This document shows positions 3,466 through 60,304 of a DNA stretch of 64,000 bases, piece by piece. The stretch covers positions 4,415 through 68,414 of the forward strand of contig NZ_JANNOD010000043.1 in assembly GCF_031398885.1 (NCBI RefSeq), written 5' to 3'. The notes beneath the pieces were generated by a model. That model was not told where the DNA came from. It ran no database searches and saw only the letters and a list, made by a program, of their open reading frames with translations. Origin of the DNA: Hymenobacter sp. (GTDB taxonomy: Bacteria; Bacteroidota; Bacteroidia; Cytophagales; Hymenobacteraceae). The first letter of the stretch is position 1. Every line of letters begins with the position of its first letter. The position numbers were made by a program, and so were the translations under genes.

Positions 3466-4920
3466 ATGACCTCCTACGACTTAACGGAGATACTGCGCAA
3501 GCTTCTGGATATGCCCGCTGAATCGGAATTGGTAGAGTTTAAGGAAGCGAATGACGGTTTCGATTCGGATAAGCTGGGCAAGTACTTCAGTGCCCTAAGC
3601 AACGAGGCTAATTTGAAAGGTGCAGAAGAAGCTTGGCTGGTATTTGGTGTCAATAACGCGCGGGAAGTGATTGGAACTGCATTTCGCTCGGGCTCCACCA
3701 AGTTGCAAAGCCTTACTAAAGAAATTGCCGACCACTGCAACAATCGTCTTACCTTCCGAGGTATTCATGAAGTAACACACAAAGGCAAGCGGGTAATCCT
3801 ATTTGAAATTCCACCCGCTGCAGTCGGCCATCCTACCGCTTGGAAAGGTCATCACTACGGACGAGACGGAGAAAGCTTGGGTCCACTAAACACCGACGAG
3901 CGCCATCGTATTGAGGGCCGGTTTCAATCTCAAATTAATTTTGAACGCGGCATCGCGTACGAAAACGCCAGCATTTCGCACATTTTAGAACTGCTTGACT
4001 GTAATAAGTATCTTACCCTTTTCAATTATCCAGCGCCTGCGGATGCCCAGGAAGTCGTCATGCGGCTGGTAAAAGATAAGGCAGTGGTTCGCGCGAATGG
4101 CGGCTTACACATCACCAATTTAGGTGCTATTCTATTTGCCAAAGACTTGCGGCAATTCAGGCACTTGGAATACAAGGGAATTCGTATCATTTTGTATGAG
4201 GGCACGGGCCGTACAGGTGGCAAGCGCGAACAAACGGGACAGAAAGGGTACGCTGTCGGTTTTCAAGGAGCCCTCGATTGGTTGAACGACCGTCTTCCCA
4301 GCAACGAAGAAATCAAAAGCGTACGTCGCGAAGTCGTACCCATGTATCCCACCAGAGCAGTTCGCGAGTTGGTCGCAAATGCCCTGATTCACCAAGACTT
4401 CTCCATTACCGGCTCGACCCTGATGATTGAGGTATTTGATAATAGAATTGAAATAACCAACCCTGGCACTCCACTGATTAACGTATTGGAATTTCTGAAT
4501 CACATACCCGTTAGCCGCAACGAGGCAATAGCTGCTACAATGCACCTGTTCGATTTTTGCGAACGGCGCGGCAGCGGCATTGACCGCACTGTGGAGGAAT
4601 GCGAAAAACATCACCTACCCGCTCCCAACTTTATTCGCGGCGACAATTATACGCAAGCCATTTTGTACGCACCCCGGCCGCTACGCGAGATGGACCGCCG
4701 CGATAAAATCCGAGCCTGTTACCAGCACGCTTGCCTGAAATACGCTAATGGTCAGCAAATGACCAACCAATCGTTTCGGGAGCGAATGGGCATTGCCGAG
4801 AAAAACTATTCCATCGCATCCCGAATTATCGCAGATGCTTTAGAAGAAGGCTTGATAAAGCCTCACGACCCGGAGAATAAATCTAAGAAGCATGCTAAGT
4901 ACATCCCCATTTTTGGGTAG
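3466..4920 (+). CDS. AlbA_2 (Schlafen-like) domain + HATPase_c_4 + C-terminal HTH protein
   Basis: N-terminal ESELVEFKEA...YFSALSN; central RELVANALIHQDF...EITNPG...ERRGSGI; C-terminal MTNQSFRERMGI; AT-richer than flanks; ATG 3466 preferred over the ORF-track start. Confidence 0.8.
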   Translation: MTSYDLTEILRKLLDMPAESELVEFKEANDGFDSDKLGKYFSALSNEANLKGAEEAWLVFGVNNAREVIGTAFRSGSTKLQSLTKEIADHCNNRLTFRGIHEVTHKGKRVILFEIPPAAVGHPTAWKGHHYGRDGESLGPLNTDERHRIEGRFQSQINFERGIAYENASISHILELLDCNKYLTLFNYPAPADAQEVVMRLVKDKAVVRANGGLHITNLGAILFAKDLRQFRHLEYKGIRIILYEGTGRTGGKREQTGQKGYAVGFQGALDWLNDRLPSNEEIKSVRREVVPMYPTRAVRELVANALIHQDFSITGSTLMIEVFDNRIEITNPGTPLINVLEFLNHIPVSRNEAIAATMHLFDFCERRGSGIDRTVEECEKHHLPAPNFIRGDNYTQAILYAPRPLREMDRRDKIRACYQHACLKYANGQQMTNQSFRERMGIAEKNYSIASRIIADALEEGLIKPHDPENKSKKHAKYIPIFG

Positions 4921-11553: not shown

Positions 11554-11556
11554 GAC

Positions 11557-11669
11557 GCTGCGCTTAATGAGGAATGAAGAATGAAGAATGAGGAATTATG
11601 GCCGTTGGGTCTGAAACTTCTCATTCCTCATTCCTCATTCTTCATTCCTCATTCTTCATTAAGCGCAGC
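11557..11669. repeat. Palindromic heptamer-array element (AATGA[G/A]G)n ... (C[C/T]TCATT)n
   Basis: Arms begin GCTGCGCTT-AATGAGG-AATGAAG... and end ...CTTCATT-AAGCGCAGC, around a ~20-nt spacer. Confidence 0.9.
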
Positions 11670-11710
11670 GTACCTCCCGTACCTTTGGGTATTCGCAACC
11701 TCATTTTGTA

Positions 11711-14259: not shown

Positions 14260-14416
14260 TAGAGCCTATCCGAAAAATAAATTGAACGTCATGCTGAGCT
14301 TGCCGAAGCATCTCGCCCGCTTCGCTGGACGGTTTTGGCGAAGCGAGCGAGATGCTTCGGCTGCGCTCAGCATGACGGGCTTTCAGCAGCAAAAATATTT
14401 TTCGGACGGGCCCTTA
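14260..14416. mobile_element. MITE-like composite: outer TIR (CCTATCCGAAAAATA) enclosing a CGTC-type REP doublet (14288-14376)
   Basis: Outer ends AGAGCCTATCCGAAAAATA / TATTTTTCGGACGGGCCCTTA; second copy at 20440-20598. Confidence 0.65.
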
Positions 14417-16135: not shown

Positions 16136-16179
16136 GCGAACAGGGAAAGAATGTATCTTTGTGCAATGCTACGGCAAAA

Positions 16180-16303
16180 GTTATTAGTTCTTGGTTGTCA
16201 GTTATTCGTTGTCGGTTGTTAGTCGAAAGGTCCGGGAAAGGCCACTAACTGACGCTGAAGCACTGAGCCGCTGACAACTGACAACGAACAACTGACAACG
16301 ACA
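16180..16303. repeat. Palindromic heptamer-array element (GTTGTCA)n ... (TGACAAC)n upstream of parA
   Basis: Left GTTGTCAGTTATTCGTTGTCGGTTGTTAG, right CTGACAACTGACAACGAACAACTGACAAC. Confidence 0.85.
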
Positions 16304-16310
16304 AAGACCC

Positions 16311-17120
16311 ATGGGAAAAATCATCGCGGTAGCCAACCAAAAAGGCGGGGTGGGCAAAACCACCACCTCCATCAACCTCGCGGCGTCCCTAGCCGCCCTG
16401 GACTACCGGACCCTGCTCGTCGACGCCGACCCCCAGGCCAACGCCACCTCCGGCGTGGGCTACGACCCCAAGGACATCCAGAACAGCATCTACGAGTGCA
16501 TGGTGGACGGCATCAACGCCCAGGACATCATCCTGCCCACCAACATCCTGCCCCACCTCGACCTCATGCCCTCCCACATCGACTTGGTGGGCGCCGAAGT
16601 GGAGATGATAAACCTACCCAACCGCGAAGAGAAGATGAAGGAGGCCCTGCGCCCCCTCGCCGAGCAGTACGACTTCATCATCATCGACTGCTCGCCCTCG
16701 CTGGGCCTCATTACGGTCAACGCCCTCACGGCCGCGCACTCGGTCATCATCCCGGTGCAGTGCGAGTACTTCGCCCTCGAAGGCCTGGGCAAGCTGCTGA
16801 ACACCATCAAAATCATCCAGAGCCGCCTCAACACCGAGCTGGAAATTGAAGGCATCCTGCTCACGATGTACGACGTGCGCCTGCGCCTGAGCAACCAGGT
16901 GGTGGAGGAAGTGCGCATGCACTTCCAGCAGCTGGCCTTCGACACCATCATCCCGCGCAACGTGAAGCTGAGCGAGTCGCCCAGCTTCGGCATCCCCGTC
17001 ATCCTGCACGACGCCGAGAGCAAAGGCTCCATCAGCTACCTCAACCTGGCCCGCGAAATCGTGGAAAAGAACAGCGTGGAAGCCCGCCCCGAGGAAACGG
17101 CCGAGGACGAGCGGATTTAG
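16311..17120 (+). CDS. parA: Chromosome partitioning ATPase ParA/Soj
   Basis: NQKGGVGKTTT deviant Walker A, DADPQANAT, IIIDCSPSLG, IPRNVKLSESPS. Confidence 0.96.
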   Translation: MGKIIAVANQKGGVGKTTTSINLAASLAALDYRTLLVDADPQANATSGVGYDPKDIQNSIYECMVDGINAQDIILPTNILPHLDLMPSHIDLVGAEVEMINLPNREEKMKEALRPLAEQYDFIIIDCSPSLGLITVNALTAAHSVIIPVQCEYFALEGLGKLLNTIKIIQSRLNTELEIEGILLTMYDVRLRLSNQVVEEVRMHFQQLAFDTIIPRNVKLSESPSFGIPVILHDAESKGSISYLNLAREIVEKNSVEARPEETAEDERI

Positions 17121-17147
17121 GCTTTTGACTTTATTACGGTTCAGGTT

Positions 17148-17411
17148 ATGATTAACCAGCATACCGACCCCGCTGCCTGGGCGCTTCTCATGTATGAGTT
17201 GGAAGATGCTGAAGACGGGCTTAAAAGTCTATTCAAGGATATTGCCGAAGACCCTGAATTTGGCGAAGTAGAATTCAGAATACACATGGCCCACATCTAT
17301 GTTCATCTAAACCGTGCTTGGAATTCGCGCAACGCAACAGCAGAGCAACAGAGTGATGATGTGTTATGGAAAAAATGGGGCCGGTTTCCAGTTGACATCG
17401 AACCTTTATAA
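17148..17411 (+). CDS. Hypothetical acidic helical protein
   Basis: 87-aa ORF with ATG, AT-richer, between parA and DUF433 gene. Confidence 0.6.
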   Translation: MINQHTDPAAWALLMYELEDAEDGLKSLFKDIAEDPEFGEVEFRIHMAHIYVHLNRAWNSRNATAEQQSDDVLWKKWGRFPVDIEPL

Positions 17412-17423
17412 AAGTATTGTGGG

Positions 17424-17636
17424 ATGTACACCTTTGCTAACCATCCATTAATCGGTGTTGACCCCGAAATACGTTTTGGCCGGGCGTGCATTATTGGTAC
17501 CCGCATCAGTGTGGATGACGTGCTGGGCTGGCTGGGCAATGGCATGAGCAATGCTGACATCGTCAAAGATTTTCCAGAATTGAGCGAAGAGTTGATTAGG
17601 GCCTGCTTGCACTACGCGGCCAATACGAGAGCTTGA
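17424..17636 (+). CDS. DUF433-domain protein (antitoxin-like)
   Basis: IGVDPEIRFGRACIIGTRISVDDVL...DFPELSEELIRACLHYA, typical of DUF433. Confidence 0.88.
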   Translation: MYTFANHPLIGVDPEIRFGRACIIGTRISVDDVLGWLGNGMSNADIVKDFPELSEELIRACLHYAANTRA

Positions 17637-17746
17637 TTCCAAGCCAAGCCACTCGCCCCAAACTTCCCGGCTTGCCCTTCGCCCAACAATCCGTAAATTT
17701 GGAGTCCCGTATGCGCCGACCTTTCGGCCAACCGGACCTTGCCGAG

Positions 17747-18727
17747 ATGACCCCAGAGAAGAACGACGAGAAAAACACGCTGCCCACCCCGTCCCAACTC
17801 GTGCCCAAGCGCAAGATTGGCGGCCTGGGCCGGGGCCTGAACGCCCTGATTGAGGGTAGCTACGAGAAAAAAGGCGACCGCCAGGGCGACCGGCTCGTGT
17901 CGCACCCCGTCAACTCGGTGGGCTTTATCTCCGTCGAGCACATCGAGGCCAACCCCTACCAGCCCCGCACCCACTTCGACCAGCAAGCCCTGCAGGAGCT
18001 GGCCGAGAGCATCAAAATCCAGGGCATCATCCAGCCCGTGACCCTGCGCCAGCTCGGCACCAACTCCTACCAGCTCATCGCCGGCGAGCGCCGCCTGCAA
18101 GCTTCCCGGTTGGCCGGCCTGGAGACGATTCCGGCCTACATCCGCAAGGCCGACGACCAGCAGATGCTGGAAATGGCCCTGATTGAGAACATCCAGCGCG
18201 AAAACCTCAACGCCATCGAAATTGCCCTCAGCTACCAGCGCCTGCTGAGCGAGTGCAACCTGCGCCAGGAAGAGCTGGGCGACCGGGTGGGCAAAAACCG
18301 CTCGACCGTCACCAACTACCTGCGCCTGCTCAAGCTGCCGCCCGACGTGCAGATTGGCCTGCGCGACGCCGAAATCAGCATGGGCCACGCCCGCGCCCTC
18401 ATCGGGCTCGACGACGCCAAGGCGCAAGTGGACCTGTTCCGCAAGATTGTGGCCGAGGAATTGTCCGTGCGCCGGGTGGAAGAATTGGTACGCGGCGGCT
18501 TTGGCCGGGCAGCGGCGCCCGCCAGCAACGGCGCCGCAACCAGCGGCCCGGCCGCACCACCCGCCGTGCCCGCCGCCGAGCTGCGCCGCACCGAGCGCCA
18601 CCTCGCCGACCGGTTCGGCTCGCGCGTGCAGGTGCGACCCGGCCCCAAGGGCAGCGGCGAAATCAAGATTGCTTTCGATTCGGTGGAGGATATGCAGCGC
18701 ATTCTGCACATTCTGCAGCCGTCTTAG
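17747..18727 (+). CDS. parB: Chromosome partitioning protein ParB/Spo0J
   Basis: GLGRGLNAL, NPYQPRTHFD, LIAGERRLQA, LIENIQRENLNAIE, GKNRSTVTNYLRLL. Confidence 0.96.
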   Translation: MTPEKNDEKNTLPTPSQLVPKRKIGGLGRGLNALIEGSYEKKGDRQGDRLVSHPVNSVGFISVEHIEANPYQPRTHFDQQALQELAESIKIQGIIQPVTLRQLGTNSYQLIAGERRLQASRLAGLETIPAYIRKADDQQMLEMALIENIQRENLNAIEIALSYQRLLSECNLRQEELGDRVGKNRSTVTNYLRLLKLPPDVQIGLRDAEISMGHARALIGLDDAKAQVDLFRKIVAEELSVRRVEELVRGGFGRAAAPASNGAATSGPAAPPAVPAAELRRTERHLADRFGSRVQVRPGPKGSGEIKIAFDSVEDMQRILHILQPS

Positions 18728-19655: not shown

Positions 19656-20375
19656 ATGAACATCCTCTTGATAGGCTACGGCAAAATGGGCCAGGCCATT
19701 GCCGCGCTGGCTACCAAGCGCGGCCACCAGATTACCGGCATCGTGGACCGCAACGCGGGCGCGCTGACCATCGCCGACTTCTCGCCCGCCACCGTGGACG
19801 TAGCCATCGAATTCACCCACCCCGATTCGGCGTTTGCCAACGTCACGGCCTGCCTGCGCCAGGGCCTGCCGGTGGTGTGCGGCTCCACGGGCTGGCTGCA
19901 CCACTTCGACGAGGCCCAGGCCCTGGCCCGGGAGCTGCGCGGCAGCTTGTTCTACGCATCCAACTACAGTGTGGGCGTGAACCTGTTCTTCCACTTCAAC
20001 GAGTACCTGGCCGCCAAAATGCACCAGTTTGGGGGCTACGACGTGGCGGTGCGCGAAATTCACCACCTCCAGAAAATCGACCAGCCCAGCGGCACGGCCC
20101 TCACCACGGCCGAGGCCATTATCCGCCACTTTCCCAGCAAAACCACCTGGCGCAACGCCCCCGCCGAAACCCCCGCCGAGCTGGCCGTGCTCAGCGAGCG
20201 CACCGGCGCCGTAGTGGGCACCCACGTCGTCACCTACTCGTCGGCCGTCGACACCCTGGAGTTGAAGCACGAGGCCCACAGCCGCGAAGGCTTTGCCCTG
20301 GGCGCCCTGCTGGCGGCCGAATGGCTGCCCGGCCGGCCGGGCGTGTTCGGAATGAAAGAGCTGCTGGATTTGTAA
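19656..20375 (+). CDS. dapB: 4-hydroxy-tetrahydrodipicolinate reductase
   Basis: MNILLIGYGKMG, VVCGSTGW, SNYSVGVN, EIHHLQKIDQPSGTA, FALGALLAAEW. Confidence 0.95.
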   Translation: MNILLIGYGKMGQAIAALATKRGHQITGIVDRNAGALTIADFSPATVDVAIEFTHPDSAFANVTACLRQGLPVVCGSTGWLHHFDEAQALARELRGSLFYASNYSVGVNLFFHFNEYLAAKMHQFGGYDVAVREIHHLQKIDQPSGTALTTAEAIIRHFPSKTTWRNAPAETPAELAVLSERTGAVVGTHVVTYSSAVDTLELKHEAHSREGFALGALLAAEWLPGRPGVFGMKELLDL

Positions 20376-20439
20376 ACGCTCCAGCGGTTCGGGCGGCGGC
20401 GGGCCCGCCGGTGTGCTGCTGCGTTTCTTTGCCTGATTT

Positions 20440-20598
20440 TAAGAACCTATCCGAAAAATACTTCAGCTGTGCAGACGCCCGTCATGCTGAGCTTGCCGAA
20501 GCATCTCGCCCGCTTCATATGAGCCATTCAACAGAGCGGTAGAGATGCTTCGACTGCGCTCAGCATGACGTTCAATTTATTTTTCGGATAGGTCCTAA
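20440..20598. mobile_element. Second copy of MITE-like composite (inner CGTC-type REP doublet 20481-20569)
   Basis: TAAGAACCTATCCGAAAAATA ... TATTTTTCGGATAGGTCCTAA. Confidence 0.65.
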
Positions 20599-20610
20599 GT
20601 TATCGTTCCG

Positions 20611-20676
20611 TGGTTGTCAGTGGTTGAAGTTTATTTAAATAGCTGACTGGTAACTGACAATCAGCAACTGACAACT
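20611..20676. repeat. GTTGTCA/TGACAAC heptamer palindrome upstream of lepB
   Basis: TGGTTGTCAGTGGTTG ... AACTGACAATCAGCAACTGACAACT. Confidence 0.7.
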
Positions 20677-20725
20677 CGTTTACTTTTGCCTGATTTTAAT
20701 TGCCAAGCCCCCGCTGGTCTTCCCC

Positions 20726-21874
20726 ATGCCTTTGTTCAAAACCGACCGCACCGCCGCCGCCAAAGCGCCCAAGTCCAAGTCCCGCGAGTGGGCCGACTCG
20801 CTGATTTTTGCCGTCGTCGCGGCCACGCTCATCCGCTGGGCCACGTTCGAGGCCTACACCATTCCCTCGCCCAGCATGGAAAATTCCCTGCTGGTGGGCG
20901 ACTACCTGTTCGTGAGCAAGCTGCACTACGGCCCCATCACGCCCCAGACGCCGCTGCAGGTGCCCCTCACCCACCAAACCGTGTGGGGCACGGGCCTCCA
21001 GAGCTACTCCGAGCTGCTCCAGCTACCCACCTACCGGCTGCCGGGCTTCTCCGAAATCAAGCGCAACGACGTGGTGGTCTTCCACGTGCCCCACGAAACC
21101 CAGTACCCCGCCGACCTGCGCACCAACTACATCAAGCGCTGCGTGGCCGTGGCCGGCGACACCCTCGAAATCAAAGACGGCCAGGTCTACCTCAACGGCC
21201 GGCCCGGCGTGACGCCCCCCGGCCTCCAAACCACTTACTTCATGCAGGTCGACAGCCCCAACGACGAGGTGCTGGCCGCCCTGCGCGCCCAGGGCGTGGT
21301 GGAATACGGCGCGCCCGACGGCGCCCCCCAGGTCCGCCCTGACGCCAACGGCAAGTTTGGCTACGAAATCAGCTGCACCAAAGCCGCGGCCGACTACTTC
21401 CGCCGGCAGCCCTACGTGCGGAGCCTGACCGTGACCGAGCCCCCGGTGCGGCTTTTTCCCGACGCCGCCGACTTCACCAACTCCGGTGCCAGCAGCGCCA
21501 CCCCGCGCAACTGGTCGCTGGACAGCTACGGCCCGCTGCCCATTCCCAAAAAAGGCCAGACCATTGCCCTCTCCCCCGCCAACGCCGCCATCTACTTCAA
21601 AATCGTGGCCCGCTACGAGCACAACGAGGGCGTGACCTGGAAGGAAGGCATGATATACCAGAACGGCAAAATGCTCACTAGCTACACCATCAAGCAGAAT
21701 TACTACATGATGATGGGCGACAACCGCCACAACTCCGAAGACTCGCGCTTCTGGGGCTTCGTGCCCGAAGACCACGTCGTGGGCAAGGCCGTGCTCATCT
21801 GGCTCTCCATCGACCCCAACGCCGACTTCTGGCACAGAATCCGGTGGAGTCGCCTGTTCGACATCATCCACTAA
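20726..21874 (+). CDS. lepB: Signal peptidase I
   Basis: IPSPSMENSLLVGDYLFVSK (catalytic Ser), YIKRCVA (catalytic Lys), GDNRHNSEDSRFWG. Confidence 0.96.
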   Translation: MPLFKTDRTAAAKAPKSKSREWADSLIFAVVAATLIRWATFEAYTIPSPSMENSLLVGDYLFVSKLHYGPITPQTPLQVPLTHQTVWGTGLQSYSELLQLPTYRLPGFSEIKRNDVVVFHVPHETQYPADLRTNYIKRCVAVAGDTLEIKDGQVYLNGRPGVTPPGLQTTYFMQVDSPNDEVLAALRAQGVVEYGAPDGAPQVRPDANGKFGYEISCTKAAADYFRRQPYVRSLTVTEPPVRLFPDAADFTNSGASSATPRNWSLDSYGPLPIPKKGQTIALSPANAAIYFKIVARYEHNEGVTWKEGMIYQNGKMLTSYTIKQNYYMMMGDNRHNSEDSRFWGFVPEDHVVGKAVLIWLSIDPNADFWHRIRWSRLFDIIH

Positions 21875-21914
21875 GCAGTCGTGCTCAAGTGAGCACAGTC
21901 AAATAATACAGCAC

Positions 21915-22002
21915 GTCATTCCGAGCCTGCCGAGGAATCTCGCCCGGTTTATCCGCGCCGCCTAACAGCGCGAGCGAGATTCCTCGGCAGGCTTAGAATA
22001 AC
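21915..22002. repeat. CGTC-type REP doublet
   Basis: GTCATTCCGAGCCTGCCGAGGAATCTCGC / GCGAGATTCCTCGGCAGGCTTAGAATAAC. Confidence 0.8.
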
Positions 22003-22066
22003 GTGCTGCTTGATTCGTTCTACATTGTGCGCGAACTTATTCAACCGCAACCGCTCCAATCCAACG

Positions 22067-22339
22067 CAAAACACCCTTCGTCACCCCCAAAACACTCTTT
22101 GCGTAACGCAAAACACCATTCGACACTGCCACAACGTCATTTACGCCTTCCTAAACGGCATTGCGACTAGACAAAACGTCATTTCGCATTCTCAAAACGG
22201 CATTGGGCATAGACAAAACGTCATTTCGGGCTCGCAAAACACCCTTCGTCACCCGCAAAACACCCCTTGACCGTCACCAAACACCATTGGCCTGTTCCAA
22301 AACACCCTTCGTCCTTCTCAAACACCCCTTGGCATCATC
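22067..22339. repeat. Tandem array of 13 x 21-nt units with conserved 12-nt head and variable 9-nt tail
   Basis: Head CAAAAC(ACC/GTC/GGC)(A/C)TT recurs every 21 nt from 22067 to 22319. Confidence 0.92.
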
Positions 22340-22345
22340 CATTCT

Positions 22346-23008
22346 TTACCACTCCACGGGCTCCAGCCCCTTGCTCGCCAGCCAAGCGTTGGCTTTGCTG
22401 AAGGGCTTGCTGCCGAAGAACCCCTTGTCGGCCGCGAACGGGGAAGGGTGCACCGACTTCAAAACCAAGTGCTTCTGCTCGTCGATTAGTTCTGATTTCT
22501 TGCCGGCGTAGGCACCCCAGAGGATGAACACGACGTGCTCCTCGCCTTCCGACACCTTGCGAATCACGGCGTCGGTGAATTCTTCCCAGCCTTTTTTCTG
22601 GTGCGAGGCGGGCTCGCTGGCGCGCACCGTGAGGGTGGCGTTCAGGAGCAGCACGCCCTGCCGGGCCCAGCGGTCGAGGTTGCCGTTGGCGGCGGGCGCC
22701 GTGCCGGGAATATCGTCCTGCAACTCCTTGAAAATATTGCGGAGCGACGGCGGAGCGGCTTGTCCTTCCTGCACCGAAAACGACAGCCCGTGCGCCTGAT
22801 TGCGCCCGTGGTAAGGGTCCTGACCCAGAATCACGACCTTGACTTGGCCAAACGGCGTGGCCTCGAACGCGCGAAAAATGTGGGCGCCGGCCGGGTACAC
22901 GGTGGCCGTGGCGTACTCGCCCTTCACGAAGGCGATAAGTCGCTGAAAATAGGGCTTTTCGAATTCGTCGGCCAACACGGGCCGCCAGCTCTCGGCTATC
23001 TTTACCAT
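22346..23008 (-). CDS. ung: Uracil-DNA glycosylase (family 1)
   Basis: VVILGQDPYHG, AHGLSFSV, PPSLRNIFKEL, HPSPF motifs. Confidence 0.97.
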   Translation of the reverse strand: MVKIAESWRPVLADEFEKPYFQRLIAFVKGEYATATVYPAGAHIFRAFEATPFGQVKVVILGQDPYHGRNQAHGLSFSVQEGQAAPPSLRNIFKELQDDIPGTAPAANGNLDRWARQGVLLLNATLTVRASEPASHQKKGWEEFTDAVIRKVSEGEEHVVFILWGAYAGKKSELIDEQKHLVLKSVHPSPFAADKGFFGSKPFSKANAWLASKGLEPVEW

Positions 23009-23124
23009 TGCGGTTTTTGAGAAAAAATAAACGAACTTCGTCGGCGTTCAATGCCCGATTTCGCGTAAAACCAATTTTGGCGGGCCGCTGTTACGCCCGC
23101 AGCTACTTCTTAGCTCCGCCGCCC

Positions 23125-23511
23125 ATGCCCACCACCACTACGCAAGGCGTCACCGTTTCGGTTACGACCAACTACTTGCCCGATTACTCCAGCCCCGGCC
23201 AGGAGCATTTCGTGTTCGCCTACAAAATTGACATTCGCAACAACAGCGAATTCACGGTGAAGCTGCTGCGCCGCCACTGGCACATCCACGACGCCAACGG
23301 CGTGGTGCGCGAGGTGGAGGGTGAAGGCGTGGTGGGCCGCCAGCCCGTGCTGGAGCCCGGCGAGGCGCACCAGTACGTGAGCGGCTGCAACCTCAAGTCG
23401 GGCGTGGGCAAGATGCGCGGCACCTACCTCATGGAGCGCTTAGCCAACGGCCAGGAATTCACGGTCGACATCCCCGAGTTTACCCTCATGGTGCCCTATC
23501 GGCTGAACTAG
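23125..23511 (+). CDS. apaG: ApaG protein
   Basis: FVFAYKIDIRN, RRHWHI, VEGEGVVGRQP, GKMRGTY. Confidence 0.93.
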   Translation: MPTTTTQGVTVSVTTNYLPDYSSPGQEHFVFAYKIDIRNNSEFTVKLLRRHWHIHDANGVVREVEGEGVVGRQPVLEPGEAHQYVSGCNLKSGVGKMRGTYLMERLANGQEFTVDIPEFTLMVPYRLN

Positions 23512-23516
23512 GGCCT

Positions 23517-23617
23517 CTTGGTTGCTTGTTGTCAGTTGCTTGTTGTCAGTTGTTAGTTTGTAGCGCAGTTGTCGGTCTGCCCAGTTTCTGACAACCGACA
23601 ACTAGCAACTGACAACT
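23517..23617. repeat. GTTGTCA/TGACAAC heptamer palindrome between apaG and methyltransferase gene
   Basis: GTTGCTTGTTGTCAGTTGCTTGTTGTCAGTTGTTAG ... CTGACAACCGACAACTAGCAACTGACAACT. Confidence 0.88.
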
Positions 23618-23619
23618 CC

Positions 23620-24399
23620 TTGTTTCAACTCCTCGCGTACTTCCGCTTCTGGCTCCGTTCGGGCAATGCCCACGGGCTGCATTCGCCGTTCGTGTTCGGC
23701 CTCTACACGGCCGTCGTTCGGCACACCGGCACTTTCGGGGCGTATGCGGGCATTGAGGCGCGGCGGCGGGAACTGCTCGCCAGTCCAGCCAGCGTAAGCG
23801 TTACCGATTTTGGGGCGGGCTCCCGCACCGGCGCGGGCCAGCAGCGCCGCGTGGCCGACATTGCCCGCACCGCCGCCAAGCCGCCGCGCCTCGCACAACT
23901 GCTGTTTAGACTGGTCAACTACTGCCGGCCGGCCACTATTCTGGAGCTGGGCACCTCGCTGGGCCTCACCACCGCCTACCTGGCCGCCGCCGACTCGCGC
24001 CACCGCGTCCTCACTTTCGAAGGTTGCCCCAACGTGGCCGCGTTGGCCCGCGAAACCTTCGCCGCGCTGCACCTGAGCAATATTGCCGTCGTGGAGGGCA
24101 ACATCGACCACACCCTGGCCCCGGCCCTGGCGGCCCTGGCCGCGCCCCTGGACTTCGCTTTTTTCGACGGCAACCACCGCTACGAGCCGACGCTGCGCTA
24201 CTTTGAGCTGTGCCTGGCGCACCGCACCGACGACTCCGTGTTCGTATTCGACGACATCCACTGGTCGGCCGACATGGAGCGGGCCTGGGAAGTCATCAAG
24301 GCCCACCCCGACGTGCGGCTGACGGTGGACCTGTTCCACATTGGGCTGGTGTTCTTCCGAAAGAATCAGCCCAAGCAGCATTTCTGGCTGCGGATATGA
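23620..24399 (+). CDS. Class I SAM-dependent methyltransferase
   Basis: HGLHSPFVF, ILELGTSLG, FFDGNHRYE, VFDDIHWS; TTG start inferred. Confidence 0.85.
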   Translation: MFQLLAYFRFWLRSGNAHGLHSPFVFGLYTAVVRHTGTFGAYAGIEARRRELLASPASVSVTDFGAGSRTGAGQQRRVADIARTAAKPPRLAQLLFRLVNYCRPATILELGTSLGLTTAYLAAADSRHRVLTFEGCPNVAALARETFAALHLSNIAVVEGNIDHTLAPALAALAAPLDFAFFDGNHRYEPTLRYFELCLAHRTDDSVFVFDDIHWSADMERAWEVIKAHPDVRLTVDLFHIGLVFFRKNQPKQHFWLRI

Positions 24400-27761: not shown

Positions 27762-29492
27762 CTACTCTACCGCCAGGCGCCGGGCCGGGCCGGCGCCGCG
27801 CAGCAGGTAGAGGCCGGCGGGCAGCCCGCCCAGGTCCAGGACCGTTTCGGGTCCGGCCGGGGCAGGGTAGCGGCGCACGGCCCGGCCCAGCGCATCGGTG
27901 AGGGTGAGCGGGGCGCCGGGCGTGCCGGTGGGCAGGCGCAGGGTGGCCGTGTGGCGGGCGGGGTTAGGAAACAGGGCCGCCGGCTCGCGGGGCCCAGCGG
28001 TGGCGGTGGCCGTCAGGGTGGGGTCGGTGAGGGAGGCGAGGAAGCCGAGAATAGTATTGGTGTTCGGGTTGGAGATGGTGGTGGCGCCGAAGCTGGCGGT
28101 GGGGCTGTTAAAATATCCTGCCACGTACACATTGCTGCCGCTCAAAGCCAGCGCGAAGGCATATTCGTTGCCCGCCCCGCCGCCCCGCTGCGCCCAGGCA
28201 AAGCTGCCCGTGGGGCCCGCGTCGGCAAGCTTGGCCACGTACGCGTCGGCAGAGCCACCGGCAGTGTTCGCATTGGCCAGGGTAGTGGCGCCAAAGGCTG
28301 CTGTAGAGCTGATAAAAGCCCCCGATACATACACGCTCGTCCCGTTCACAGCCAAGGCATCGGCGCGGTCGTTGCCCGTGCCGCCGGCCCGCTGGGCCCA
28401 CACGAAACTACTAGTGCTGCCCGCGTCGGCAAGCTTGGCCACGTACGCGTCGGCAGAGTTACCGGTAGTGTTCGCATTAACCAGGGTAGTGGTACCAAAG
28501 CCCGCCGTGAGCCCGCCAAAATACCCCGCCACGTACACGTTATTGCCGCTCACGGCCAGCGCGTTGGCTTGATCGTCACCGATGCTGCCGGCCCGTTGCG
28601 CCCACACGAAACTACTAGTGCTGCCCGCGTCGGTTAGCTTGGCCACGTACGCGTCGTTTATCCCGGTGTTGGTCAGGTTCGTACTGCCAAAGCCCACCGA
28701 GGAGCTGCGAAATTCTCCGGCCATGTACACGCTCGCACCGTTCACGGCCAGCGCGTCGGCGCTGTCGTTGTCTTGGCCGCCGGCCCGCTGCGCCCAGGCA
28801 AAGCTGCCCGTGGGGCCCGCGTCCGTGAGCTTGGCCACGTACGCGTCGGAAGTGAATGCAGCGGTTCTCACATTAATCAGAATGGTGGCGCCAAAGCTGG
28901 CTGTGAAGCTGCGAAATTCCCCGGCCACGTACACGCTCGTTCCTCTCACAGCCAGGGCGGTGGCGAGGTCGTTATCCAGGCCGCCGGCCCGTTGCGCCCA
29001 GGTAAAGCTGCTAGTGCTGCCCGCGTCGGTGAGCTTGGCCACGAACACATCGGCAGAGCCCGCATTGGCCAGGGTGGTGGCTCCGAAGCTGGCCGTAGGG
29101 CTGCGAAATTCCCCGGCCAAGTACACACTCGTCCCGTTCACGGCCAGCGCGTTGGCTTGGTCGTCGCTGCTGCCACCGGCCCGCCGCGCCCACACAAATT
29201 GATTACTGACGGGGCTAAACTTAGCCACGAACACATCATCGCCCCCGACACTGGTGAGCGTAGTGCCGCCCAGCACCACGCTGTTCGCGAAGTACCCCGC
29301 CAAGTACACGTTGCCCGCCGCATCGACAGCCGTAGCCCTCACATAAGAAAAATTTCCCGTTACAGCCGCTGTGGCCGCCGCTACCACGCGGGCCGATTGC
29401 CAAGCCGGGGCTTGGGCGGCGGTCGGGGAAGCCAGGGCGAAGAACAGGCCGGCCAGCAGGCCCGCCATGCGCAGGGAGAAGACGTGCTTCAT
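27762..29492 (-). CDS. T9SS type A cargo: predicted seven-bladed beta-propeller repeat protein
   Basis: Signal peptide; seven VY[LVM][AS]G.F blades with D[AV][YF]VAKL...WAQRAGG repeats; C-terminal ALFPNPAR...GLYLLR CTD. Confidence 0.88.
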   Translation of the reverse strand: MKHVFSLRMAGLLAGLFFALASPTAAQAPAWQSARVVAAATAAVTGNFSYVRATAVDAAGNVYLAGYFANSVVLGGTTLTSVGGDDVFVAKFSPVSNQFVWARRAGGSSDDQANALAVNGTSVYLAGEFRSPTASFGATTLANAGSADVFVAKLTDAGSTSSFTWAQRAGGLDNDLATALAVRGTSVYVAGEFRSFTASFGATILINVRTAAFTSDAYVAKLTDAGPTGSFAWAQRAGGQDNDSADALAVNGASVYMAGEFRSSSVGFGSTNLTNTGINDAYVAKLTDAGSTSSFVWAQRAGSIGDDQANALAVSGNNVYVAGYFGGLTAGFGTTTLVNANTTGNSADAYVAKLADAGSTSSFVWAQRAGGTGNDRADALAVNGTSVYVSGAFISSTAAFGATTLANANTAGGSADAYVAKLADAGPTGSFAWAQRGGGAGNEYAFALALSGSNVYVAGYFNSPTASFGATTISNPNTNTILGFLASLTDPTLTATATAGPREPAALFPNPARHTATLRLPTGTPGAPLTLTDALGRAVRRYPAPAGPETVLDLGGLPAGLYLLRGAGPARRLAVE

Positions 29493-42308: not shown

Positions 42309-42499
42309 GTCATTGCGAGCGCAGCGCGGCAATCCTTCTTTGCTTAGCCATTTTCCCTTTAAGACGTGATAAACCCTTTATCTGGCAACCCCTTCTAATT
42401 TTTAAAACAAGCGCTGAGACTGCGTAGGGTCATGGCTCGTCACATTATCAGGATTGTCACCTTTATAAGGAAGGATTGCCGCGCTGCGCTCGCAATGAC
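42309..42499. repeat. CGTC-type REP doublet with long AT-rich spacer
   Basis: GTCATTGCGAGCGCAGCGCGGCAATCCTTC / GAAGGATTGCCGCGCTGCGCTCGCAATGAC (perfect 30-nt IR). Confidence 0.85.
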
Positions 42500-42506
42500 A
42501 AGCGGG

Positions 42507-42965
42507 CTACATTCTTTCCATGTCGCGCTTCTGGGCTTTTTCTTTGAGGTCGTTGCGCTTGTCGTAGAGCTTTTTGCCCTGAGCGAGGGCAATTTCGATT
42601 TTGGCGAAGCCGCGGTCGGTCACGAACAGGCGCAGGGGGATGATGGTGAGGCCCTGGTCGACGCTTTTGCCGGCCAGCTGCTTGAGCTCGCGCTTGTTGA
42701 GCAGGAGCTTGCGCTCGCGCATGGCGTCGTGATTGTTGTAAGTGCCCAGCGAGTAGGGCGCGATGCGGATGGAGTGAATCCAGAGGCTGCCGTCGGTGTG
42801 GAACAGGCAGTAGCCGTCGGTCAGGTTCACGTTGCCTTCGCGCACGCTTTTGATTTCGGTGCCTTGCAGCATCACGCCCGCGTCGTACTTGGCCAGGAAG
42901 CTGTATTCGTGGCTGGCGCGGCGGTTCTTGATGTTGATGATGGCGGGTTTATCGTCTTTGGCCAT
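42507..42965 (-). CDS. smpB: SsrA-binding protein
   Basis: KNRRASHEY, AGVMLQGTEIKSVR, RERKLLLNKRE, GKKLYDKR. Confidence 0.97.
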   Translation of the reverse strand: MAKDDKPAIINIKNRRASHEYSFLAKYDAGVMLQGTEIKSVREGNVNLTDGYCLFHTDGSLWIHSIRIAPYSLGTYNNHDAMRERKLLLNKRELKQLAGKSVDQGLTIIPLRLFVTDRGFAKIEIALAQGKKLYDKRNDLKEKAQKRDMERM

Positions 42966-42992
42966 GCTTACATAGTTGTCAGTTGCTCGTTG

Positions 42993-43448
42993 TCAGTTGT
43001 CGGCCAGGCCAAGGAAGTGGTACGGACCAGAAGGTGCGGGGGCCGCGGCTTGCAGGGCGGCGAAATGGGCCGCCCGGCGGGCGCGGGCCCCGATGTGCTG
43101 CCCCGTGGTGCCGGTAGCCACGAGACGCGGCCCCACGCGGGCTTCTACGGCGCAGCACAAATTTGCGCCGTGGAGGGCGTCAAAGGTAACCGTCACCACT
43201 ACGGTTTCGCTGGCAAAAGCGGGCGCGTGGTGCCAGATGAACAGCTCGGTGCCGACGCCTACCCCGTCGGCTCCTTTCATCTCGGGCACAAATAGACGGG
43301 CGGCCCACTCCATCTCGCAACCCAGGGCAAAGGTGCTGAGGACTTTATGCACCGGGCCACCGGCGGCGGGGCTGAAGTCGGCCCGGTCGGCGGGGCCGAC
43401 CATGTAGCAGGGGATTGTGACAGCGCCGGGGCGAAAGAGGTTGGCCAT
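42993..43448 (-). CDS. Hotdog-fold thioesterase (FlK-like)
   Basis: VLSTFALGCEMEWAA, GVGTELFIWHHAP, VATGTTGQ. Confidence 0.75.
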   Translation of the reverse strand: MANLFRPGAVTIPCYMVGPADRADFSPAAGGPVHKVLSTFALGCEMEWAARLFVPEMKGADGVGVGTELFIWHHAPAFASETVVVTVTFDALHGANLCCAVEARVGPRLVATGTTGQHIGARARRAAHFAALQAAAPAPSGPYHFLGLADN

Positions 43449-52500: not shown

Positions 52501-52603
52501 TTGTCATCCTGAGCCTGCGAAGGACCTTCTCACGCCCACGCCGACTGAATTCAGGGCAAACGAAGCAGGCCTGAGAAGGTCCTTCGCAGGCTCAGGATGA
52601 CAA
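52501..52603. repeat. CGTC-type REP doublet
   Basis: TTGTCATCCTGAGCCTGCGAAGGACCTTCTCA / TGAGAAGGTCCTTCGCAGGCTCAGGATGACAA (perfect IR). Confidence 0.85.
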
Positions 52604-52783: not shown

Positions 52784-53674
52784 ATGGCCCTCACTCCCAC
52801 CCGCAAGAAAAAGCTTGGCTCCTACCCCACTCTGCTCGTGGTGTTCAGCATCACGCTGGCCTTGGTGGTGATTGGCTTGTTTGGGCTGCTGCTGCTGCAC
52901 GCCCAGAAGCTGAGCGAGGTGGTGCGCGAAAACCTGGAGGTGCAGGTCTACCTCGACCGCGACCTGCCCGAAACCGAGCTGCTGCGCCTGCAGCAGGACC
53001 TGGGCCAGCAGCCCGGCGTGGCCGAGCGGGCCGGCAAGCCCCAAATCCGCTTCGTGAGCAAGGAAGAGGGCGCCCGCCAGCTCCTGCAAAGCACCGGCGA
53101 GGACTTCCGCCAGTTCCTGGGCGACAACCCGCTGCGCGACGCCTACGTGCTCAAAATCAAGCCCGGCTACACCGACACCCTGCACCTGCGCCAGCTGGAG
53201 CGCGGCCTGGCCGCCCAGCGCGGCGTGTTCGAGGTGCAGTACCCGCAGAGCCTGTTCAGCAGCATCAACGAAAACCTGACCCGGGTGAGCCTCGTGCTGC
53301 TGGGCTTCGCGGCGGTGCTGGTGCTGGTGGTGGTCATCCTGATTAACAATACGATTAAGCTGGCGCTGTTTTCGCAACGCTTTCTTATCCGCTCCATGCA
53401 ACTGGTGGGCGCCACACGGCTCTTTATCCAGCAGCCGTTTTTGCGACGGGCCACCTGGCAAGGGCTCACCAGCGGCGTGCTGGCAGCCCTGCTGCTGGTG
53501 GCGCTGCTGCAATACGCCTACCTGGAAGTGGAGCCGCTGCGCCTGCTGCGCGACGACCTACGGCTGGGCCTGCTGCTGCTGGCCGTGGTGGGCCTGGGCG
53601 TGGTCATCGGCTTCTTCAGCTCGGCCCGCGCCGTGCACAAGTACCTGAAAATGTCGCTCGACGAACTGTATTAA
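52784..53674 (+). CDS. ftsX: Cell division permease FtsX
   Basis: Four-TM pattern, FLGDNPLRDA, LINNTIKLALFSQRFLIRSMQLVGAT. Confidence 0.93.
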   Translation: MALTPTRKKKLGSYPTLLVVFSITLALVVIGLFGLLLLHAQKLSEVVRENLEVQVYLDRDLPETELLRLQQDLGQQPGVAERAGKPQIRFVSKEEGARQLLQSTGEDFRQFLGDNPLRDAYVLKIKPGYTDTLHLRQLERGLAAQRGVFEVQYPQSLFSSINENLTRVSLVLLGFAAVLVLVVVILINNTIKLALFSQRFLIRSMQLVGATRLFIQQPFLRRATWQGLTSGVLAALLLVALLQYAYLEVEPLRLLRDDLRLGLLLLAVVGLGVVIGFFSSARAVHKYLKMSLDELY

Positions 53675-53776
53675 TTTAGTTGTCAGTTATTGGTTGTCAG
53701 TTGTCAGGCCACTGAACTTGACTTTTCGCCAAAAACCGACACCTAACAACTGACAACTAAAAACTGACAACTAAAC
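53675..53776. repeat. GTTGTCA/TGACAAC heptamer palindrome
   Basis: TTTAGTTGTCAGTTATTGGTTGTCAGTTGTCAG ... CTAACAACTGACAACTAAAAACTGACAACTAAA. Confidence 0.88.
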
Positions 53777-53779
53777 CCT

Positions 53780-54085
53780 ATGCAACCTGCTCCCCGTTTT
53801 GCCTTCGGGCCCCGCAATTACCGCCTCATGTGGCTCGGCCTGGGCCTGCTCGCGGCCGGCTTCATCACCATGATGTTCGGCGACAAGGAAAATTACGGCG
53901 AGGATTTCGTGGGCATCACGCTCGGCCCGCTGCTGCTGCTGGCCGGCTTTGGGGTGGAGTTTGCCGCCATTCTGGTGCGCGACCAAACCCTGGTGGCGAC
54001 CACCGACGCCCCGGTAGCCACCCCGGCCACCGCCGCTGCCCCGGCCGCCGCCCCAGTGGCCGCGCCCGCCTACAAGCGCCTGTAA
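53780..54085 (+). CDS. DUF3098-family membrane protein
   Basis: FAFGPRNYRLMWLGL...ITLGPLLLLAGF; conserved ftsX-X-uppP position. Confidence 0.8.
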   Translation: MQPAPRFAFGPRNYRLMWLGLGLLAAGFITMMFGDKENYGEDFVGITLGPLLLLAGFGVEFAAILVRDQTLVATTDAPVATPATAAAPAAAPVAAPAYKRL

Positions 54086-54160
54086 ATTAGTGATGATTGA
54101 TTAGTGGTAAGTGATTAATCTCCAACACTCATCACTCATCACTAACCCCTAATCACTAAA
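54086..54160. repeat. AGTGAT(T/G)-type heptamer palindrome
   Basis: ATTAGTGATGATTGATTAGTGGTAAGTGATT ... CACTCATCACTCATCACTAACCCCTAATCACTAA. Confidence 0.8.
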
Positions 54161-54161
54161 A

Positions 54162-54992
54162 ATGACTTACTGGCACGCGCTGCTCCTGGCCATCGTGGAG
54201 GGCCTCACCGAGTTCTTGCCCGTGTCCAGCACCGGGCACATGATTATTGCCTCGGCGCTGCTGGGCATCCCGGCCACGCCGTTCACCAAGCTGTACCTGG
54301 TGGTCATTCAGCTGGGGGCCATCCTGTCGGTGCTGGTGGTGTACTGGAAGCGGTTTTTTCAGAGTCTGGACTTCTATTTGAAGCTGCTGGTGGCGTTTCT
54401 GCCGGTGGTGGTGGTGGGGCTGCTGCTGAAGAAATACATCGACGCACTGCTCGAATCGGTGCCCGTGGTGGCGTTCATGCTGCTGTTTGGCGGGGTGGTG
54501 TTGCTGTTCATTGACCGCTGGTTTCCGCAGCAGGACGCCAACGCAGGCGGGCGCCCGGTCACGAACCCAGGCTGGCGGCAGGCGTTCACCATCGGCGTGT
54601 TTCAGTGCCTGGCCGTGGTGCCCGGTGTGAGCCGTTCGGCGGCTACCATCATCGGCGGCCTCACCCAGAAGCTCACCCGCCAGGCCGCGGCCGAGTTTGC
54701 CTTTTTCCTAGCCATGCCCACCATGGCGGCGGCGGCGGCCAAGGACCTCTACGACTACTATAAAGACGCCCACGCCCAGGGCCTGCGCCTGGCCGACTTG
54801 TTCACGGCCGAGCAGGTGAAGCTGCTGGCGCTGGGCAACGTGGCGGCGTTTGTGGTGGCGCTGCTGGCCATTCGGGTGTTCGTGGGCTTCGTAACGAAAT
54901 ACGGCTTCCGGGCCTTCGGCATCTACCGTATCATCGCGGGCGGCCTGCTGCTGCTGATGCTAGGGCTGAGCATTCCGCTGAAAATGGTATGA
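54162..54992 (+). CDS. uppP: Undecaprenyl-diphosphatase
   Basis: [42 protein letters not shown]. Confidence 0.96.
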
Positions 54993-55144
54993 CGCTGCGC
55001 TTGTGCTGCGCTTAATGAAGAATGAGGAATGAAGAATGAAGAGTTGACTGCCCCGAACGAAGAATTGGAGGGGAAAAACGAGACAATGGCGGAGGGCAAT
55101 GCTGCCGCGCAAAATTCCTCATTCCTCAATCTTCATTCTTCATT
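54992..55144. repeat. AATGA[G/A]G heptamer palindrome overlapping the truB 5' end
   Basis: GACGCTGCGCTT-GT-GCTGCGCTT-AATGAAG-AATGAGG-AATGAAG-AATGAAG ... TTCCTCATTCCTCAATCTTCATTCTTCATT. Confidence 0.88.
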
Positions 55145-60144: not shown

Positions 60145-60237
60145 GTCGTGCCGAGCGCAGCCGAAGCATCTCGCGTGTGATGGTGACTCAATCGTTCGAT
60201 AGTGCGAGCGAGGTGCCTCGGCTGCGCTCGGCATGAC
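60145..60237. repeat. CGTC-type REP doublet
   Basis: GTCGTGCCGAGCGCAGCCGAAGCATCTCGC / GCGAGGTGCCTCGGCTGCGCTCGGCATGAC. Confidence 0.82.
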
Positions 60238-60242
60238 GTTCC

Positions 60243-60294
60243 TTTTGCTCATTGTTAATTGCTCATTGTTAATTGTTAATTGCTCATTGTTAAT
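60243..60294. repeat. Tandem heptamer array (TTGCTCA/TTGTTAA)n upstream of scoB
   Basis: TTGCTCA-TTGTTAA-TTGCTCA-TTGTTAA-TTGTTAA-TTGCTCA-TTGTTAA. Confidence 0.85.
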
Positions 60295-60304
60295 CGAATA
60301 ACCC

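Follow-up and report, generated by a model that had tools for sequence, protein, structure and literature searches.

Tandem repeats between bacterial genes are of several described kinds, with which we compare here an array of 21-nt units found between the convergent genes lepB and ung in a 64,000-nt stretch of a Hymenobacter sp. genome (contig NZ_JANNOD010000043.1, positions 4,415–68,414 of the forward strand; this whole stretch is called the window, and coordinates are counted from its first nucleotide). The pneumococcal BOX elements, with their repeated boxB, and the mycobacterial MIRU are noncoding intergenic tandem units of 45–100 nt that form RNA or DNA hairpins and are alike over their whole length; we know of no mobilizing enzyme for either, nor for the present array. 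The iterons and centromere-like arrays of plasmids and phages consist of direct repeats of ~17–22 bp that share one helix face and combine a conserved core with a variable spacer, often in curved DNA. In kinetoplast-type bends, the DNA is curved by phased A-tracts. In CRISPR arrays, identical direct repeats of ~23–50 nt alternate with unique spacers of similar size. In TIGR arrays, two alternating repeats of 8–12 nt are separated by 9-nt spacers, usually in 5–15 units, and the repeats start with a box D (UG/CG) and end with a box C (CCA/CGA/CUA/CAA) (PMC12045711). The operator sites of LytTR regulators (AgrA, ComE, YpdB) are pairs of repeats of 9–11 nt, direct or inverted, with spacers of 11–13 nt, the direct ones having a period of ~21 bp; the YpdB motif is GGCATTTCAT (PMC4847170).

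The array of the window (22067–22339) is a real, noncoding, thirteen-unit repeat. Judged by its sequence, it belongs to no described family and is classed with the intergenic modular repeats or the phased binding arrays. The reading that we prefer, tentatively and with less than even confidence, is that of a phased, curved, multisite protein-docking array situated in the terminator zone, a modular element that would act at the level of DNA and be restricted to a lineage. Protein binding and a benefit to the host are both inferred.

Anatomy of the array

The region 22067–22339 consists of 13 in-register units of 21 nt (273 bp), each made of a 12-nt head, which is conserved, and a 9-nt tail that is close to random. 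The self-identity of the array is 0.59 at a lag of 21 nt, 0.64 at 42 nt, and 0.53 at 63 nt, against ~0.2–0.3 at other lags, and Tandem Repeats Finder (TRF) gives periods of 21 and 42. With at most one mismatch allowed, CAAAACNNCNTT has 12 in-phase matches inside the array and 18 outside it (64 kb, both strands), only one of the outside matches being exact; the total of 30 was reached by none of 100 shuffles. The mean pairwise identity is 0.77 in the head (positions 1–12) and 0.32 in the tail (positions 13–21), for a random expectation of 0.28. Periodicity, motif counts, and head and tail identities confirm the description given in the initial annotation of this DNA, which was made from the sequence alone. 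Positions 1, 4, and 12 are invariant in all 13 units and position 14 is G in nine of them. The unit motif can be written CAAAAC-NN-C-A/C-TT, extended more weakly by Y-G-N-C, and ~5–9 freely varying bases complete the unit.

Every unit is exactly 21 nt long, as first annotated, but the accompanying statement that there is no length drift needs correction: there are 1-nt indels inside the heads of units 10, 11, and 13, each compensated within its unit. The contrast between head and tail identity, together with the maintenance of 21 nt despite the indels, fits a constraint on the motif and on the phase, not on the spacer. As 21 bp make two turns of the helix, the 13 motifs and the A4 tract that each of them contains all fall on the same face.

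All units are read on the + strand. Units 1–3 (22067–22129) have ACC-type heads (CAAAACACCCTT, CAAAACACTCTT, CAAAACACCATT) and form a block of 63 nt, which is resembled by units 9–11 (77% identity) and partly by units 12–13. In units 4–8 (22130–22234), GTC and GGC heads alternate in a 42-nt super-repeat, apparent in the unit listing and in TRF (period 42, 2.3–2.6 copies, 80–87% matches); units 4–5, 6–7, and 8 make up 2.5 repeats of this block, and units 5 and 7, which have the GGC head (E-type), agree at six of nine tail positions. Units 9–13 (22235–22339) again have ACC-type heads, with the compensated 1-nt shifts. Unit 9 is almost a copy of unit 1 (20/21 identical), and the first 16 nt are common to unit 12. 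The head subtypes, the GTC/GGC alternation, and the likeness of units 1, 9, and 12 had all been noted before and hold. The tails, on the other hand, had been called mostly unique, whereas the units fall into about five types related through duplication, in 63-nt and 42-nt blocks.

Upstream, a degenerate unit 0 or “leader” (CGCAACCGCTCCAATCCAACG, 22046–22066, + strand) is in register with the array. Its 16-mer CCGCAACCGCTCCAAT matches, at 14 of 16 positions, CCGCAATCGCTCCACT at the start of a second array in the Hymenobacter metagenome-assembled genome (MAG) L084, described below. Unit 0 may be absent from the contig of a sister strain (L247), where 21890 joins 22061. Downstream, unit 13 ends 6 nt before the stop codon of ung. 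An assembly artefact is ruled out, with an identical array in the independent Logan contig L001 and the array present also in the related strain L247; array-related contigs are present in two soil metagenomes.

Coding capacity, promoters, and RNA structure

The period of 21 nt equals seven codons and the open reading frame (ORF) 22010–22270 reads as QNxI heptads up to a stop in unit 10, as already annotated, with the suggestion of a decaying coiled-coil gene. A heptad-repeat mini-gene, intact or decaying, has in our view a negligible probability. There are stops in all six frames, those of the minus strand having been noted as well, and the array runs on past them. The ORF starts within sequence missing from the sister strain, and the array of L084 has stops in every frame. 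A word-indexed protein search with the + frame ORF gave nothing at E ≤ 1; an exhaustive phmmer (HMMER) search of 1.84 billion representatives gave 17 weak matches, all of them generic low-complexity QNxI heptads in unrelated proteins.

TAnnTTTG, the −7 promoter motif of Bacteroidetes, occurs 24 times in the window, about twice the 12.6 expected from shuffles; none of these occurrences is within 21875–22345, and a σ70 scan is empty across the lepB–ung spacer. Copies of the motif closely precede pyrG, yidC, parA, lepB, and other genes (9893, 11680, 16154, 20681, and 20 more sites), which is useful for promoter calling in this Hymenobacter genome. As RNA, the + strand of the array folds no better than its shuffles (z = −0.2). 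The − strand folds somewhat better (z = −2.6), mostly through the G-U pairs of a G/U-rich repeat; it has two weak terminator-like hairpins, a number not above that of shuffles. A search of the array for internal inverted repeats gave none. There is no Rfam match to the array, either in E-value mode over 20000–24000 or in gathering mode for four array loci, and no match by blastn to PLSDB (72,556 plasmids). The literature on 21-bp repeats in Hymenobacter or Bacteroidetes, or on curvature at convergent genes, gave nothing relevant. The earlier remark that no known class fits thus agrees with the lack of Rfam, Pfam, plasmid, and literature matches.

In the initial annotation, one reading was double: a repeat-spacer-like noncoding RNA or an iteron-like binding array. 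The second half fits the anatomy (head, phase, and free spacer), yet no binder or replication gene lies nearby. The first half found no support. In an orphan array of guide RNAs (TIGR-like or mini-CRISPR), the heads would be protein handles and the tails guides, in a transcript cut into units for an effector encoded elsewhere. The sizes are indeed TIGR-like, with 12-nt heads and 9-nt tails and two head types alternating in units 4–8 with a period of 42, and the strain differences are cassette-like. However, on neither strand do the heads start with UG/CG and end with CCA/CGA/CUA/CAA, so that there is no box D or box C, and the alternation covers five of the 13 units only. Tails that follow heads of one type are related through duplication, and they have positional preferences in common with the tails of L084. 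The spacer has no TAnnTTTG promoter, and the + strand shows no folding signal. Pfam scans of 50 window ORFs revealed no Cas, Nop/Tas, Rep, RAYT, or transposase domain; no Nop-domain protein or candidate effector occurs there or beside the L084 array. Array-less relatives share an identical gene order. Hallmarks of CRISPR or TIGR are absent, and we consider such a guide-RNA array very improbable.

By analogy with CrcZ, which sequesters Hfq/Crc, the array could also form an unstructured, CA-rich 3′ untranslated region of lepB, in which 13 CAAAAC motifs would sequester an RNA-binding protein. The + strand is unstructured and carries the A-rich motif 13 times, and the array lies downstream from a co-directional gene both in the window and in L084. 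Against this, there is neither a dedicated promoter nor an Rfam match, a sponge needs no strict 21-nt phase kept by compensated indels, and the conserved T11-T12 and C9 are left unexplained. A protein-titrating RNA is improbable.

Predicted curvature

Another earlier suggestion, that of bent DNA, gains computational support. In a wedge model with dinucleotide parameters after the Bolshoy–Trifonov table, applied at 1,275 sampled window positions, the array has a predicted end-to-end/contour ratio of 0.41, whereas the window averages 0.94 and has its first percentile at 0.79. By that model, no other 273 bp in the 64 kb are as curved, and an A5N5 control has a ratio of 0.35. No mononucleotide shuffle comes near the predicted curvature. 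Only 1.3% of column-permuted arrays are as curved (p = 0.013), i.e., the array exceeds 98.7% of them, which would mean that the motif itself contributes, beyond the period. In a second wedge model, with AA/TT only and 10.5 bp per turn, the array is again predicted to be the most curved 273 bp; the effect is gone, as expected, at 10.0 bp per turn. The array of the Bacteroidota contig L148 (see below) is likewise predicted to be the most curved stretch of its own locus.

Relatives and a sister strain

In seven related Hymenobacter sources (ung 87%–91% identical), the lepB–ung spacer is 47–219 nt long and has no array. Most of these spacers contain a bidirectional intrinsic terminator (A-run, GC hairpin, T-run), some with flanking arms of repetitive extragenic palindromes (REPs). 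In Hymenobacter sp. DH14, tandem heptamers form one hairpin of 103 nt that makes up the whole lepB–ung spacer. The array-less relatives have the same genes in the same order around the locus. Because the array is missing from the lepB–ung spacers of the seven relatives, it appears to be a recent arrival in one lineage, at the place of the terminator.

The sister strain L247 (from a soil metagenome; ung 97% identical in amino acids) has the same array with orthologous units. Between the two, 18 of 207 nt differ, and 14 of these 18 are spread over the unit 6 tail and the whole of unit 9. Without units 6 and 9, the difference is 4/165 (2.4%). The neutral rate, taken from four-fold sites, is 26/172 (15%; ung 20/110 and apaG 6/62), which differs from that of the array minus the two units with a Fisher p = 3e-5. 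In the ung–apaG spacer, 16 of 116 positions differ, and divergence resumes at once in the last ung codons. We read the array, from this one strain pair, as looking constrained on its units, with occasional whole-unit conversion. A 9-unit copy-number variant (the “goes back 185 + 4 nt” joint of run X5) was considered but is not claimed, since an alignment of the divergent unit 2 to the head of unit 11 is simpler.

A second Hymenobacter locus and wider searches

A search for the head pattern at a 21-nt period, as proposed at the outset, led to a homologous array in the Hymenobacter MAG L084. The genome scan covered one genome per species and asked for two heads 21 nt apart; the genome and the metagenome scans gave at least 120 matches each, so that counts are lower bounds and no control comparison is possible. 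The L084 array has ~12 units of the same kind (CAAAACGTCATTC, CAAAACAGCATTCGGCAGTGG; 3′ end CAAAACCACCTTCGG) and lies between convergent glycosyltransferase genes. Its orientation is that of the window, with the CAAAAC strand co-directional with the upstream gene, and its end is ~10 nt from the stop codon of the opposite-strand gene. Both arrays begin with CCGCAAYCGCTCCA. The best unit pair between the two is identical at 17/21 positions, and the tails have common positional preferences (Y13, G14, and C16), with a mean identity of 3.01 vs. 2.40 ± 0.14 in permutations. The arrays of the window and of L084 thus look homologous, at unrelated loci in two species, and would form a small family so far. 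One array is seen in the 64 kb and, among the matches listed, at least one each in two other Hymenobacter sources.

Among the matches listed, 21-nt arrays with similar heads occur in other Bacteroidota (L148, L043, L112, and L023) and in Verrucomicrobia (L027 and L106), in mixed contexts. We do not claim these cross-phylum arrays as one family, because the search pattern fixed nine of the 12 head positions and each scan gave at least 120 matches, of which those listed are described here. Many of the listed matches are two-unit chance or operator-like pairs, or unrelated near-perfect arrays, as in Nostoc. In viral contigs, the pattern is not in excess (26 loci vs. 30 for the reversed control), and viruses were on these counts rejected as a home of the array.

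Several other 21-nt repeats were seen in the course of these searches. Two Bacteroidales MAGs have a dispersed 84-nt element of 4 × 21 nt, with the palindromic head yAAAACGSCGTTTyA and ~6 variable bases. It is found in convergent, divergent, and tandem spacers, in at least 12 copies in MAG187 (L008, L016, L032, L073, L080, L090, L094, L095, L101, L108, L117, and L126) and at least six in W3P37.035 (L014, L021, L034, L069, L110, and L119), and matches no Rfam family. In Nostoc, near-perfect 21-nt arrays (CAAAACGACTTTGAAGTACCT) reach at least 18 units, some at contig ends (L009 3402–3779, L085 2441–2734, L072, L033, L070, and others). The metagenome contig L212 has 63 units of GAAAACACAATTTTAGCTGAA, with in-frame stops. 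In unrelated metagenome contigs (L222, L225, L234/L238, L136, L213, and L231), there are direct-repeat pairs of AAAAC[TG]ACATTT exactly 21 nt apart, which look like two-site operators of the LytTR type.

Base composition and transcription termination

The + strand of the window array contains A 30%, C 36%, G 13%, and T 21%, and of all 100-nt + strand stretches in the 64 kb, the one with the highest excess of C over G (C 44, G 9) lies in units 9–13. The tails of the L084 array are rich in G (38%, against 29% C). The features of a rut region, a C-rich, G-poor, unstructured RNA of at least ~80 nt downstream from a gene, are found at the window array and not at L084.

A transcription-termination module is an unlikely explanation, but it draws on this composition. 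The read-through RNA of lepB, with 270 nt that are C-rich and unstructured, would load Rho, while the opposite strand, rich in G and U and with a GUUUUG at each 21-nt step, would delay or terminate the ung transcripts; the array would thus have replaced the ancestral bidirectional terminator in function. The fold scores of the two strands are consistent with this, as is the canonical bidirectional terminator in the spacer of the relatives, of which the window lineage has none. In L084, and apparently also in the sister strain, the array is the sole content of the convergent spacer. Among the matches listed, the CAAAAC strand is co-directional with the upstream gene in seven of nine nonpalindromic arrays, but this count is not significant. 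Moreover, Rho loading needs composition and not a conserved, phased 12-mer, the G-rich tails of L084 mean that an excess of C over G is no family trait, and the two hairpins of the − strand are weak and at shuffle level.

The neighboring REP and growth by duplication

A REP-like inverted repeat with 45-nt arms (84% complementary) lies at 21902–22015, a separate element outside the array and ~50 nt upstream of it. The unit heads resemble the 5′ edge of the REP, with 15 of 19 positions alike between unit 8 and the REP head, and the units of L084 contain CATTCCGCAG, close to CATTCCGAG of the REP. Because the contig of the sister strain skips 21890–22061, the REP beside the array would be a later, separate insertion. 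The REP family has five further sites within the window; its inverted pairs, with arms GTCATNCYGAGC...GCATCTC, are at 14288–14376, 20481–20569, 21902–22015, 42309–42499, 52503–52601, and 60145–60237. Weak, sub-threshold Rfam matches to RF02901 (AaHKsRNA41) at 20441–20607 and 21914–22003 are such REPs.

At the L148 locus (42% GC Bacteroidota contig, minus strand, 3615–4035), a 14-unit array (TAAAACNGCATTGAT...) runs straight into a GTCATTGCGA-type REP. The last unit is the left arm of the REP, suggesting that the edge of a REP can give rise to such arrays. REPs are near only two of 19 arrays (the window and L148, in a set of the window plus 18 loci). A general origin from REPs was therefore rejected: it is backed for the window and L148 only, and the 17 other arrays are without a nearby REP.

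The array could in principle be a selfish or neutral minisatellite, derived from a short sequence, possibly the REP 5′ edge, that was duplicated through slippage or unequal exchange. It would persist as insertions in convergent spacers do little harm, and the head would be conserved for its own spread or conversion and not for the host. This alternative, the main rival of the docking array, is doubtful, though much in the data agrees with it. The arrays are confined to a narrow lineage and sit at different loci in different species. Higher-order blocks of 42 and 63 nt are typical of minisatellite growth, and the strain differences are clustered as whole-unit replacements. The REP likeness of unit 8, of the L084 units, and of the L148 end goes in the same direction. 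So do the many other tandem-repeat hairpins that fill Hymenobacter spacers, and the 4 × 21-nt element dispersed in all kinds of spacers in the two Bacteroidales MAGs. However, gene conversion would homogenize whole units and not heads only, whereas the tails are at random-level identity and the heads at 0.77. Outside the two exchanged units, there is far less strain change than at neutral sites, and the 21-nt phase is kept by compensated indels. No transposase or RAYT-like gene is present in the 50 window ORFs scanned with Pfam, and the REPs accompany very few of the arrays.

Genes and other repeats of the window

The gene order is parA, parB, DUF5683, dapB, lepB, array, ung, apaG, methyltransferase, and kdsA. 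The upstream gene lepB (20726–21874, + strand; signal peptidase I, Peptidase_S26) is on the same strand as the CAAAAC motif. The convergent ung (22346–23008, − strand; uracil-DNA glycosylase) has its stop codon abutted by the array; its product shares 91% identity with the Hymenobacter sp. BT664 protein, and the close matches are all from Hymenobacter. The position first given for the array, between convergent lepB and ung and after a REP, is thus correct.

The chromosomal parA/parB genes are at 16311–18727, 3.3 kb upstream of the array. Canonical parS sites (TGTTNCACGTGAAACA, at most three mismatches) do not occur beyond chance in the 64 kb. A ParB centromere was rejected: array-less relatives share the parAB gene order and there is no parS-like site. 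A replication origin or terminus was rejected also, as the GC-skew shows no switch at the array.

The window has long intergenic hairpins with tandem-heptamer arms (AATGAAG/CTCATTC, AGTTGTC/GACAACT, and ATTAGTG/CACTAAT), the same heptamer families recurring at several loci. They are at 11555–11670, 16170–16312, 20600–20690, 23512–23625, 42960–43010, 53670–53782, 54078–54165, 55005–55150, and 60238–60300, and at 3664–3766 of L006. These hairpins look like a dispersed, terminator-like class of repeats; the array period of 21 is 3 × 7. A different kind of repetition, with tandem repeats of ~200 and 396 nt (71%–80% matches), occurs at 28165–29198, inside the ORF 27762–29492. This ORF of 576 amino acids has no Pfam match and probably encodes a repeat-domain surface protein.

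A possible role at the level of DNA

Our preferred reading, a phased and curved docking array, can be formulated as follows. The two-turn phasing of motifs with A4 tracts would produce a statically curved segment of ~270 bp. On this curved segment, many copies of one putative DNA-binding protein could dock side by side. The element would take the place that the bidirectional intrinsic terminator has in the relatives, between the convergent genes. It would change by in-register duplication and whole-unit conversion, while selection would keep the head and the 21-bp phase. Such a DNA-level element accounts directly for the contrast between heads and spacers, for the low strain divergence with swapping of units, and for the lack of any sign of coding, of a promoter, or of RNA structure. 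That two species have homologous arrays in different convergent spacers would be expected if the element were mobile, or if it were retained where it is harmless or useful.

To our knowledge, the LytTR-type response regulators are the only family with sites of this geometry, and one LytTR two-component pair is encoded in the window. A LytTR regulator is thus a candidate binder, as a lead and not as a test.

Several points weigh against this reading. Outside the array, the window shows no enrichment of the head motif, so that no regulon is visible, and sites of transcription factors do not normally occur in 13 copies between gene ends. The flanks of 11 loci were examined and no gene co-occurs with such arrays, the search thus giving no recurrent neighbor. 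Hymenobacter species with such arrays number at least two. The predicted curvature of the L084 array is weaker (0.64), and the bend could be a by-product, as any 21-bp tandem repeat gathers some curvature. The conservation test compares one strain pair, with two units excluded after the data had been seen; with all units included, p = 0.055.

A broader proposal would be that of a class of cis elements, with 21-bp units and a (C/T)AAAAC-N3-(A/C/G)TT head, present in Hymenobacter and perhaps more widely in Bacteroidota and read by a dedicated factor. We hold this to be unlikely. Candidate roles in such a class would be a decoy that titrates a regulator (LytTR-type or a new nucleoid protein), an insulator of convergent transcription, or an orphan short-guide array with its effector encoded at another place.

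If the head is a protein recognition site, the locus is a chromosomal array of 13 phased sites, without a neighboring partner gene, at the usual place of a terminator. The terminators and nucleoid proteins of Bacteroidota are poorly known, and such a site would offer a handle on the insulation of convergent genes in that phylum, as well as a concrete bait for the binder. If the array is instead a selfish minisatellite, it shows that a terminator between essential genes can give way to short nonpalindromic tandem elements that are then kept, and it adds a repeat class to a genus in which tandem-heptamer hairpins already crowd the spacers. On either reading, the strain-level signature is clear, with heads and phase kept and whole units swapped.

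Comparison with known systems

In CRISPR arrays, the repeats are longer; in the present array, 12 nt of each unit are conserved and 9 nt are variable, the heads differ between units, and there is neither a Cas domain among the 50 ORFs nor a TAnnTTTG promoter. With TIGR arrays, the sizes and the number of units agree. The alternation of two head types holds in units 4–8 only, the other heads being of a third type. The heads, however, read CA...TT on the + strand and AA...TTG on the − strand, without box C/D, and no Nop-domain Tas gene is present among the 50 searched ORFs of the window, the neighbors being DUF5683, dapB, lepB, ung, apaG, and a methyltransferase.

The REP and BIME elements are, like the array, intergenic and favor convergent spacers. 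They are palindromic, whereas the array units are direct repeats without internal symmetry, and the array-bearing sister strain appears to lack the REP that lies beside the array in the window. The BOX and MIRU elements share with the array the tandem intergenic units in variable number, a content that differs between strains, and several loci in related genomes. The array differs from them by its 21-nt units, conserved in the head only and nonpalindromic, and by its strict two-turn phase.

With kinetoplast-type bends, the array shares A4 tracts at an exact helical multiple, and its predicted ratio is near that of the A5N5 control (0.41 vs. 0.35). The array, however, has one A-tract per two turns and not one per turn, and it conserves also C1, C6, C9, T11, and T12, which are not required for bending alone. 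As in iterons, the repeats are direct, phased, and within ~17–22 bp. In contrast to iterons, no array-specific rep or par gene is adjacent, the flanks are chromosomal housekeeping genes, there is no AT-rich unwinding element or DnaA box, and no plasmid in PLSDB matches the array. In the LytTR operators, the known sites are pairs upstream of promoters, whereas the array has 13 copies between the 3′ ends of genes, without a promoter motif. The period and the repeat length of the array fit those of the LytTR sites, and GGCATT and GTCATTTCG in the heads are similar, as a lead, to the YpdB motif GGCATTTCAT.

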